Virus record (IMG/VR): IMGVR_UViG_3300049846_002100
Location: 1 to 64,000 of that record
Strand: one strand, 5' to 3'
Length of the DNA: 64,000 nt
DNA from: a virus
Under the pieces are notes generated by a model. The model saw nothing but the letters and a program-made list of their open reading frames with translations. It was not told the origin of the DNA and searched no databases. Positions 54,538 through 56,008 of the stretch are shown here, piece by piece (the stretch's first letter is position 1; each line of letters begins with the position of its first letter). The position numbers and the translations under genes are program-made.

Positions 54538-55335
54538 ATGCGGGTTCTACGGCAGGGACTAGAGGGGGACGATGTTTCGGCCTGGCAGAACTTCTTGACC
54601 GGACAGGGGTTCTACAAGAACGAGGTCGACGGGTCGTTTGGTGACAAGACCAAGCTAGCGACGCAGGACTTCCAGAGGACGTTCGGCCTGGATCCCGATG
54701 GGGCCGTGGGGGACGCCACGATTGCGAAGGCCGTCGAGTGCGGCTTCGAAGCCTACAGGGGCGAGGATGCGAGCGCAACAGGCCCGAATTGGCCCGCGCC
54801 GCCCACGAATTTGAAGCCCTTGACCTCAACGGCAGAGAGGCAACGGGAGTTCGGCGCGTTCAAGTATGCGGCGGCTCCTACGCCGGGTAACCCAGAAGCC
54901 ATCCGGGTTACCGACAACTGGTATCAGGCGAACATGACCCGAGTGGTCATCCCTCAGCTTGCGGGTGGACGTATCGTCGGTGCCCCCAAGGACGGGAGCA
55001 TCGTCTTCCACCGCCGGGGAGCGGGCCAGCTCCTTGCGATGTTTCGCGCATGGGACGACGCGGGACTCATGCCCCTCGTGCTCTCGTGGGCTGGTAGTTA
55101 CGCCCCTCGATTCATCCGGGGTAGCCGGTCCGTTCTCTCTAACCACGCCTTCGGAACCGCCTTCGACATCAACCCCGAATGGAACGGCCTCGGCGTCGTC
55201 CCTGCCCTCGTAGGGAATGTCGGTTCGGTACGGAAGCTCGCCGAGCTGGCACCTCAGTTTGGGTTCTATTGGGGCGGTCATTTCAGTGGTCGCCCTGACG
55301 GAATGCACTTTGAGCTGTGTGAGGTACGTACGTGA
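54538..55335 (+). CDS. Endolysin: PG-binding domain plus M15-family peptidase
   Basis: DGSFGDKT...DFQ...DGAVG; R, SNHAFGTAFD, WGG, DGMHFE; GGAGG RBS before 54538. Confidence 0.88.
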   Translation: MRVLRQGLEGDDVSAWQNFLTGQGFYKNEVDGSFGDKTKLATQDFQRTFGLDPDGAVGDATIAKAVECGFEAYRGEDASATGPNWPAPPTNLKPLTSTAERQREFGAFKYAAAPTPGNPEAIRVTDNWYQANMTRVVIPQLAGGRIVGAPKDGSIVFHRRGAGQLLAMFRAWDDAGLMPLVLSWAGSYAPRFIRGSRSVLSNHAFGTAFDINPEWNGLGVVPALVGNVGSVRKLAELAPQFGFYWGGHFSGRPDGMHFELCEVRT

Positions 55336-56008
55336 AATCATTTGTGTACTGCACCACCAACGTAAAGAGCGGGAAGCGCTACGTCGGCAAGGCTAATAAC
55401 CCGACTCAACGTTGGGTAGATCATATCCGTCGTGCCAGACAAAGTGCGGAGGGGTACCTCACCAACACCATACGCAAGTGGGGAGTTGAGTCATTTAAGT
55501 TAGAGGTCGTTCAAGAACACCCTTCGGAGAAAGCGGCTTTCGAAGCGGAGGCTGAACTCACTCGTGTTTGGGAAACAAACAACTCCCAGTAGGGGTACAA
55601 CCTTGCGGGAGGTGGTCGAGGCGGCGGCCCCTCAGAGATCGTCCTTGCCAAGCTTAGACGACCAAAGTCGGAAGAGACTAAGCTACGTATGCGACGCCCA
55701 AAGTCTCCTGAACATAGGCAAAAGCTGAGTGCCGTGAAGGTCAGCGATAAGAACCTCAATTCGGCAAACCGCTCTCGGAAGAGCATCGCACCAAGATCAG
55801 TCGTGCTAATACGGGGTCTGGTAACGGCTTCGCAGGGAGGAAACATGGGGACGCAACACGCGAACGCATGCGCGCGGCCCAACAATCCCCCGAAGTGAAA
55901 CAACGGGCTTCTGAGGGGGTGCGTGCGGCGTGGGTACGTCGAAAAGCAGTCCCAAAAGTCAACGACAGCATGCATTTCGAGTTGGCAGAACCCAATTCAG
56001 CGGTGTAA
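55332..56008 (+). pseudogene. GIY-YIG homing endonuclease pseudogene (TAG at 55590-55592, frameshift near 55760)
   Basis: FVYCTTN...YVGK...R..DH...E...NSQ*GYNL, then NUMOD3-like repeats (SEETK, SPEHR, SEEHR). Confidence 0.85.

Follow-up and report, generated by a model that had tools for sequence, protein, structure and literature searches.

A Decayed GIY-YIG Homing Endonuclease Gene between Two Copies of the Catalytic End of a Predicted Phage M15 Endolysin Gene

Free-standing homing endonuclease genes (HEGs) of phages typically lie between genes, and the genome carrying one is protected by polymorphisms in the target. The Seg proteins of phage T4 are free-standing GIY-YIG homing endonucleases of this kind, associated with "intronless homing." Fungal mitochondrial mobile open reading frames (mORFs) form "gene hybrids," which passages of PMC3630166 describe for atp6, atp9 (a GIY-YIG case), cox2, and nad3 of Glomus sp., citing Paquin et al. 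1994 for an earlier hybrid in atp6 of Allomyces macrogynus. In the hybrids as described there, an in-phase inserted C-terminal segment is followed by the endonuclease open reading frame (ORF) and then by the native C-terminal segment, the last of which is nearly identical to that of ORF-less relatives (PMC3630166). According to parts of PMC10448857, nuclease genes of ICP1 phages occur at recombination boundaries and beside essential genes, in decayed or rearranged form; gp115-gp116 decayed by frameshift, and the duplications described in those parts lie within endonuclease DNA-binding domains rather than in the end of an invaded gene. The locus presented here comes from a window of 64,000 nucleotides (nt), the whole stretch analyzed, of the 88,941-base uncultured virus record IMGVR_UViG_3300049846_002100. 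It consists of a gene predicted to encode a peptidoglycan-cleaving M15 endolysin and, within the end of that gene, a GIY-YIG HEG. Very probably, a 667-nt cassette was inserted in the end of the lysin gene, bringing a substitute tail and the HEG and displacing the native tail, and the HEG has since decayed. The features concerned are as follows.

54508..55335, + strand: endolysin gene, an ORF with PG_binding_1 and Peptidase_M15_4 domains; stop TGA at 55333-55335
55297..55335, + strand: substitute (working) lysin C-terminus, DGMHFELCEVRT plus stop, in frame with the lysin ORF
55332..55963, + strand: free-standing GIY-YIG/NUMOD3 HEG pseudogene, recognized by Pfam and homologues
55590..55592, + strand: TAG nonsense codon in the GIY-YIG domain, directly 5' of the conserved GYN, seen in translation
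55751..55762, + strand: 1-nt frameshift from the frame of 55332 to the frame of 55763, located by three-frame translation and the NUMOD3 frame
55964..56008, + strand: displaced native lysin C-terminus (the remnant), DSMHFELAEPNSAV plus TAA at 56006-56008, now the end of the HEG frame

The two tails share a motif. At 55297-55323, the lysin frame reads GAC GGA ATG CAC TTT GAG CTG TGT GAG (DGMHFELCE), and at 55964-55990, the frame of the C-terminal HEG piece, which finishes ...RRKAVPKV-N-DSMHFELAEPNSAV, reads GAC AGC ATG CAT TTC GAG TTG GCA GAA (DSMHFELAE). The first-pass annotation of this DNA had placed both motifs at exactly these positions and in these frames, and its description of the match as 7/9 residues, synonymously recoded, agrees with the codons: the copies are alike at 18 of 27 bases, their longest identical run is 5 nt, and four of the six shared residues with degenerate codons are encoded by different codons. 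In a six-frame scan of the window (127,948 nine-residue windows), the remnant was the only sequence besides the motif itself to reach at least 5/9 residues, and the next-best match, 4/9, was seen 37 times. In a BLOSUM62 scan, the remnant match scored 39, compared to a maximum of 34 over 300 shuffles of the lysin tail. On the basis of both scans, the duplication exceeds chance.

Contigs of three public sequencing runs (X1 to X3) were aligned to window positions 54000-57000; X1 may be the source sample, and X2 and X3 represent one sample of another study. The HEG-bearing form was found in X1 (record 4, 54842-56073, with both tail copies spanned) and in X2 (records 10-12, covering 55031-56073), with 0 differences from the window in either run. 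The TAG was unchanged in X2 record 11 and the frameshift in X2 records 11 and 12, that is, in the second study. None of these three features (arrangement, TAG, and frameshift) can therefore be put down to a single faulty assembly. That the match is a chance resemblance, or an artefact of an assembly that joined two strains, is barely conceivable. The motif is short, and the tail of the homologue P0001 alone reached only an E value of 0.13 by tblastn against the window, but the nine-residue scan singles out the remnant, 13 of whose 14 residues are those of a real allele's tail (P0128), and single contigs from two separate studies span both copies without a difference.

The HEG begins with a GTG at 55332 that overlaps the lysin stop (GTGA), and its predicted N-terminus, MKSFVYC, agrees with those of the homologues P0122 to P0124, which are 44-50% identical, 199-208 amino acids (aa) long, and likewise of GIY-YIG plus NUMOD3 architecture. 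GIY-YIG (PF01541) was detected on 55332-55589 with 42.4 bits (cut-off, 22.6; 41.5 bits in the genome search), and NUMOD3 was detected with 32 bits (34.8 bits at 55763-55873, in a different frame from GIY-YIG). The HEG has no intact frame: TAG 55590 cuts the Asn of GYN off from the other catalytic residues, and the frame changes within 55751-55762. Because of these two lesions, the gene is a pseudogene of the GIY-YIG family and not a working member, as the first-pass annotation had proposed. The frameshift probably arose from the loss of one C from the C run at 55754-55755, as its restoration would give a continuous ...DKNPQFGKPLSEEH... repeat.

TAG is the terminal codon of 10 of the 39 window ORFs of at least 250 aa, including the ORF at 53312-54082, the orthologue of which in a related viral contig (L091, below) ends at the same residues. 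TAG is therefore a real stop in this phage. Decoding of TAG 55590 as an amino acid was considered and rejected in light of these ORF ends and of a tRNA scan, in which no tRNA gene was found in the 64-kb window (the last 25 kb of the record were outside the scan). The GC content was 0.51-0.57 over the HEG and insert, 0.63-0.65 in the lysin gene, and 0.64-0.67 downstream, and by this drop between flanks of 0.63-0.67, the insert looks foreign.

Relatives of the HEG were interrogated for the motif that ends its frame in the window. They comprised five homologous proteins (E values of 8e-26 to 7e-4) and 83 loci, 3 from genomes and 80 from viral contigs, with 3 frames that run off their contig. The first-pass annotation had held that GIY-YIG homologues at unrelated loci ending in MHFEL would speak against a lysin origin of the motif. 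MHFEL was found in none of the five proteins, which end in ...RRLGKV, in ...REREGV, or otherwise, and an MHFEL-like end was found at none of the 83 loci, among which the only "MHF" was at the N-terminus of one endonuclease present in two loci. The natural end of the window HEG, ...RRKAVPKV at about 55960, aligns with the ...RRLGKV end of the homologues, and P0123 and P0124 end where the window reads ...PKV, just 5' of the remnant. The remnant is therefore not part of the endonuclease.

A lysin of the window's family was found at none of the 83 loci; the HEG relatives sit after ribonucleotide reductase, structural, and other genes. In two loci (L012 and L013), HEG relatives about 50% identical to that of the window directly follow a class II-like ribonucleotide reductase gene, whose product has a Cys-rich zinc-finger tail at its end; neither locus showed a duplicated tail.

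The origin of the remnant was assessed by comparison with lysin homologues, 1744 of which were found at an E value of ≤1e-5. Among the 120 homologues listed for tail statistics, 119 carry D-x-M-H-x-E near their end. Gly follows the Asp of D-x-M-H in 117 of these 119, and Ser, the residue in the remnant, follows it in none. The residue after MHFEx is Ala, as in the remnant, in 102/119 and Cys, as in the working tail, in 3/119, and a tail of seven residues after MHFEx, the length in the remnant, was found in 2/119. The closest listed homologue, P0001, is 89% identical to the window lysin, is 267 aa long, and ends DGMHFELAKPDLAV; the remnant matches this tail at 10 of 14 residues, with the same length and the same stop position. 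The 90% cluster of P0001 also holds the window lysin and P0128, an HEG-free allele of 267 aa from another assembly that is 95% identical and ends DGMHFELAEPNSAV. With the P0128 tail, the remnant agrees at 13 of 14 residues, the sole difference being Gly/Ser.

Deletion of 55297-55963 in silico gave an open lysin of 267 aa from Met 54538, ending DSMHFELAEPNSAV, as had been predicted in the first-pass annotation. This length is that of the two closest homologues, with which the product aligned without gaps (254/267 identical residues with P0128 and 235/267 with P0001), whereas the actual lysin required a two-residue gap (249 residues identical to P0128 and 232 to P0001). Scores against the family hidden Markov model (HMM) were 408.6 bits for the actual lysin and 406.3 bits for the in silico native form. 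Based on these alignments, the remnant is identified as the lysin's native end, and the insert, 55297-55963, lies 14 codons 5' of the native stop. The Ser of the remnant could be a scar of the junction or could have arisen by drift in a relic no longer under selection.

HEG-free DNA was found in the runs that also contain the HEG-bearing form. An HEG-free X1 contig fits the window from 55968 on, and its preceding 30 letters translate to ...GGHFSGRPDG; as translated, the contig is lysin body running directly into the remnant. HEG-free X2 record 9 (682 nt, about 83% identical to the lysin gene) joins 55314 to 56036 with about 52 letters between these points, where 54 letters are expected from simple excision and 721 in the HEG-bearing form. 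A search of viral contigs for a 21-base stretch of the remnant found 0 matches. X1 and X3 contain yet another lysin allele, which follows the window as far as 55317 and then has an AEVD-stop tail and unrelated downstream sequence; the lysin module thus has differing downstream neighbors in one environment.

A more distant, syntenic locus was found at 3698-7263 of the 67,887-nt viral contig IMGVR_UViG_3300031772_000024 (L091). Its lysin, P0129, is 62% identical to that of the window and is identical to P0002 except at one residue, and six of its seven neighbor genes are orthologous to those of the window (30-62% identity). The seventh neighbor is a low-complexity, histone-H1-like ORF of 52 aa, in the same position as the following window gene.

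56067..56267, + strand: Lys/Ala/Pro-rich histone-H1-like ORF of 66 aa, the next gene after the remnant; HC2, 19.5 bits, below the cut-off

In L091, the H1-like ORF starts 86 bases after the lysin stop, and a tblastn search of the 10.8-kb locus with the HEG gave a best E value of 0.1, so there is no HEG at the lysin end. The lysin ends DGMHFELCSVT plus TGA, a Cys/Val/Thr/TGA tail of the type of the window's working CEVRT. The site is thus polymorphic for presence and absence of the HEG, which is missing from P0128, P0001, the X1 loose end, the X2 joint, and L091. From these comparisons, the ancestral gene order is read as being without the HEG.

Loss is part of the usual homing endonuclease cycle, and the window endonuclease is already dead; in principle, the HEG-bearing form could be ancestral and the HEG-free alleles products of precise cassette loss. 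This order of events is very unlikely. The Ala-type tail is the norm of the lysin family, L091, syntenic though distant, has no endonuclease, and precise loss would need recombination between copies with identical runs of ≤5 nt. The X1 HEG-free contig, furthermore, fits the window only from 55968, i.e., it has the remnant copy.

The lysin ORF at 54508-55335 encodes 275 aa, or 265 aa from ATG 54538; this codon is the likely start, being aligned with the initial Met of P0001, P0128, and P0129. In all three runs, a diverged relative's contig has 68 other letters in place of 126 bases at 54394-54521, a region just 5' of the annotated lysin start and extending into it. A start at 54538 rather than 54508, with a variable region before it, fits this replacement. 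PG_binding_1 (PF01471) was detected with 47.5 bits and Peptidase_M15_4 (PF13539) with 53.6 bits over profile positions 2-70 of 70, reaching residue 270; the working tail completes the latter domain in phase, up to the last profile position.

Both motifs of M15 (LAS) peptidases are present in the lysin: SxHxxGxAxD (S201-D210) and DxxH (D254-H257). In an alignment of 59 family members, the residues of S201-x-H203-x-x-G-x-A208-x-D210 and D254-G-M-H257-x-E259 are invariant or nearly so, and D254, H257, and E259 are the same in all 59 sequences. A single-sequence search of the Protein Data Bank (PDB) with the lysin matched only the PG-binding domain, and a profile search was needed for the catalytic part; the family profile matched Ply500 (2VO9; E value, 1.4e-4) and LysB4 (6AKV; E value, 3.1e-4) through profile position 258-259. 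Ply500 and LysB4 are LAS-type M15 enzymes and share the two motifs with the window lysin, which differs from them in domain order, having PG_binding_1 at its N-terminus and the catalytic domain at its C-terminus. In LysB4, according to a part of PMC6354061, the zinc ligands are His132 and, within the SxHxxGxAxD motif, His80 and Asp87, and Asp129 is at the catalytic water. By homology to LysB4 and Ply500, D254 of the window lysin would be the catalytic Asp and H257 the third zinc ligand. The first-pass annotation had called the His of the duplicated motif a zinc ligand; the motif and its His are present, and the ligand role is assigned by this homology. Since the duplicated motif contains the DxxH Asp and this His, an insertion without a substitute tail would kill the lysin.

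The completed domain also bears on whether the insert is an intron. A group I intron with an HEG, in which exon 1 (to about 55296) is spliced to exon 2 (from 55964) and DGMHFELCEVRT is intronic, is a highly improbable explanation. GIY-YIG/NUMOD3 endonucleases are often intron-borne, the homologue P0123 is automatically named "group I intron endonuclease" by JGI, and the in silico splice gives an open frame. Against these points, no intron family was found by Rfam in 54300-56500 even at an E value of ≤10, the HEG frame at 55332-55963 leaves 35 nt on its 5' side and 0 nt on its 3' side for a ribozyme core, and what would be intron sequence is an in-frame end of the M15 domain, complete with all the invariant residues and a stop. 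The Ser of the remnant, where 117/119 homologues have Gly, is also as expected of an unselected relic. An intein was considered and rejected: the insert, at 667 nt, is not divisible by 3 and is interrupted in frame by a stop (55333-55335), so it cannot be an intein, and it has a frame change and only GIY-YIG and NUMOD3 as Pfam domains.

In the proposed mechanism, a mobile cassette (55297-55963, 667 nt) would have entered the last codons of the lysin gene at the catalytic D-G-M-H motif, bringing a copy of the last 12 lysin codons and stop followed by a free-standing GIY-YIG/NUMOD3 HEG. The substitute tail would keep the lysin whole by restoring the catalytic Asp and the third zinc ligand, and the resident tail (MHFELAEPNSAV plus stop) would have been pushed downstream, where it now terminates the HEG frame. 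By analogy with known homing endonucleases and with the mitochondrial hybrids, the endonuclease, while active, presumably cleaved lysin alleles lacking the HEG within or close to the conserved DGMHFEL codons. Repair from an HEG-carrying genome would have copied the cassette in, homology being provided on the left by the lysin body and on the right by the remnant together with the DNA downstream of it. Two features would make the carrier immune: its site is split by the cassette, and most synonymous positions are changed in the substitute copy; compared to the X1 HEG-free contig, the Asp and Gly codons of that copy differ too. The divergence of the copies, with no identical run above 5 nt, would also hinder deletion by recombination between them. 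With the endonuclease decayed by a nonsense codon and a frameshift, the element would now be a fixed fossil. Of this scheme, the sequences show the architecture, the existence of HEG-free alleles, and the decay, whereas cleavage specificity, carrier immunity, and a foreign source of the substitute tail are inferred. Within the substitute tail, GAGG at 55321-55324, 7 nt 5' of the endonuclease GTG, may be the endonuclease's ribosome-binding site. A scan for promoters and terminators gave no signal above shuffles.

The substitute tail may have been imported from another lysin lineage, an origin moderately preferred, over its 12 codons, to divergence in place. In the latter account, the insertion duplicated the recipient's own target, and the working copy then diverged, perhaps selected to escape cutting. 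This account of the locus is unlikely, though it is the most credible of the alternatives considered here. The duplicated stretch is short (D-x-MHFEL, 21-27 nt), none of the 120 listed homologues is a CEVRT-tailed lysin that could have been the donor, and the codons of the substitute tail are about equally far from the L091 tail and from the remnant. Yet the copies differ at 9 of 27 bases and in CEVRT versus AEPNSAV, while the whole lysin is 95% identical to P0128, and over the 30 bases directly 5' of the working copy, only three mismatches to the X1 HEG-free contig were found. Furthermore, the rare Cys after MHFEx is the state of the next-closest lysins, P0002/P0129 and P0003, and of L091; V, T, and a TGA stop are further features that they have in common with the working tail. 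The fraction of G or C at third codon positions (GC3) was 0.58 in the substitute tail, nearer to that of the HEG (0.55-0.57) than to that of the lysin body (0.74), over 12 codons only. The first-pass annotation had the wider idea that A/T-ending codons are plentiful in the working copy; these values show this only weakly, the remnant having a GC3 of 0.64 over 14 codons.

Several observations weigh against insertion of a cassette with an imported tail. The likeness of the substitute tail to the L091/P0002 type consists of C, V, T, and TGA only, within 12 codons. The exact junctions depend on one 30-letter loose end and one contig joint. Differences between the window lysin and P0128 are spread along the gene, with no upstream co-conversion tract at the protein level. 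No intact orthologue of the window HEG was found, the nearest relatives being 50% identical and at other loci. A duplicated tail of the upstream gene, moreover, was found at p < 0.01 at none of the 63 other HEG-relative loci tested (20 of the 83 have no same-strand upstream gene), so the layout is no habit of this endonuclease family. The best of these loci (L017, p = 0.017) was rejected as a chance match between the endonuclease's own KHGxENFxLE motif and the tail of a structural protein.

Compared to described elements, the window has the layout of the mORF gene hybrids as presented in parts of PMC3630166, with an HEG in the 3' part of a host gene, the tail completed, and the native tail displaced. 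As in those hybrids, the displaced tail is closer to the tails of ORF-less relatives than the inserted tail is. The window differs in that the host is a bacteriophage and not an organelle, the invaded gene is that of an M15 endolysin, and the substitute piece has 12 codons, compared to tens to hundreds of bases in the described Glomus cases (PMC3630166). In addition, the HEG start overlaps the substitute stop (GTGA), and the HEG is a pseudogene.

The window HEG also resembles the free-standing GIY-YIG HEGs of phages, with a catalytic domain and repeated DNA-binding modules, a place beside or inside an essential gene, and presence or absence among close relatives; it differs from them in that the cassette lies inside a coding sequence and carries a spare gene end. 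With intron- and intein-borne HEGs, the cassette shares a conserved catalytic coding site, the splitting of its own target, and the retention of host function, but it is predicted to involve neither RNA nor protein splicing, the downstream coding part being duplicated instead. Duplication of the gene end as a way to keep host function is practical only near the end of a gene. In a limited literature search, no published phage case came to light in which a duplicated gene end flanks a homing endonuclease; the window case is thus a known kind of element in a host class for which that search found no printed description.

Besides introns and inteins, a recoded spare gene end might serve HEGs generally as a third means of entering conserved catalytic codons of essential phage genes; the likelihood of this falls a little short of even. 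Equally tentative is a reading of the tail and HEG as a coevolved module, in which the tail would provide the ribosome-binding site and overlapping start and its recoding would have been selected for self-immunity and against deletion.

On this evidence, neither an intron nor an intein is required for an HEG to sit within the coding sequence of an essential phage gene if it brings along a copy of that gene's last codons; HEG-free alleles serve as natural controls. Such cassettes would explain short duplicated gene ends and "hypothetical" stubs beside nuclease genes in phage annotations, and from the displaced remnant, the invasion can be dated and its orientation read. The case also points to a homing target in M15 lysins, namely, the conserved codons of the zinc site. 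HEG-bearing and HEG-free alleles in one sediment sample offer a simple system for following cassette spread and decay. For lysin engineering, the alleles suggest that natural lysins tolerate two rather dissimilar tails after MHFEL.

Searches beyond these alleles gave little. When viral contigs were scanned with the window lysin, none of 22 pattern matches was a relative, and a scan of metagenome contigs returned a sole, irrelevant locus (L007; 48% identity over 25 residues). By blastn against 50,697 phage records, one 49-base match was found, to Stenotrophomonas phage DLP_3, in the low-complexity H1-like gene.

Two other regions of the window may contain similar arrangements. The ORF at 1686-2528 (- strand) has NUMOD3 repeats and, by eye, a GIY-YIG-like N-terminus that was undetected by PF01541. 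It starts MARFTKDP, and the next downstream gene, 614-1684 (- strand), starts MPRFVTDP, with 5 of 8 residues alike in register; the 614-2528 region may be an N-terminal mirror of the lysin case. The ORF at 42327-42821 (+ strand) begins IEWTTYLQLPF, and the following ORF, 42893-44218, contains M-TTATDIKWSSYLGWEGPFF and has a PG_binding-like end (tblastn with P0001, 44084-44215; E value, 0.002). The region 42290-44218 may represent a second cell wall enzyme gene with an endonuclease relic at its start.

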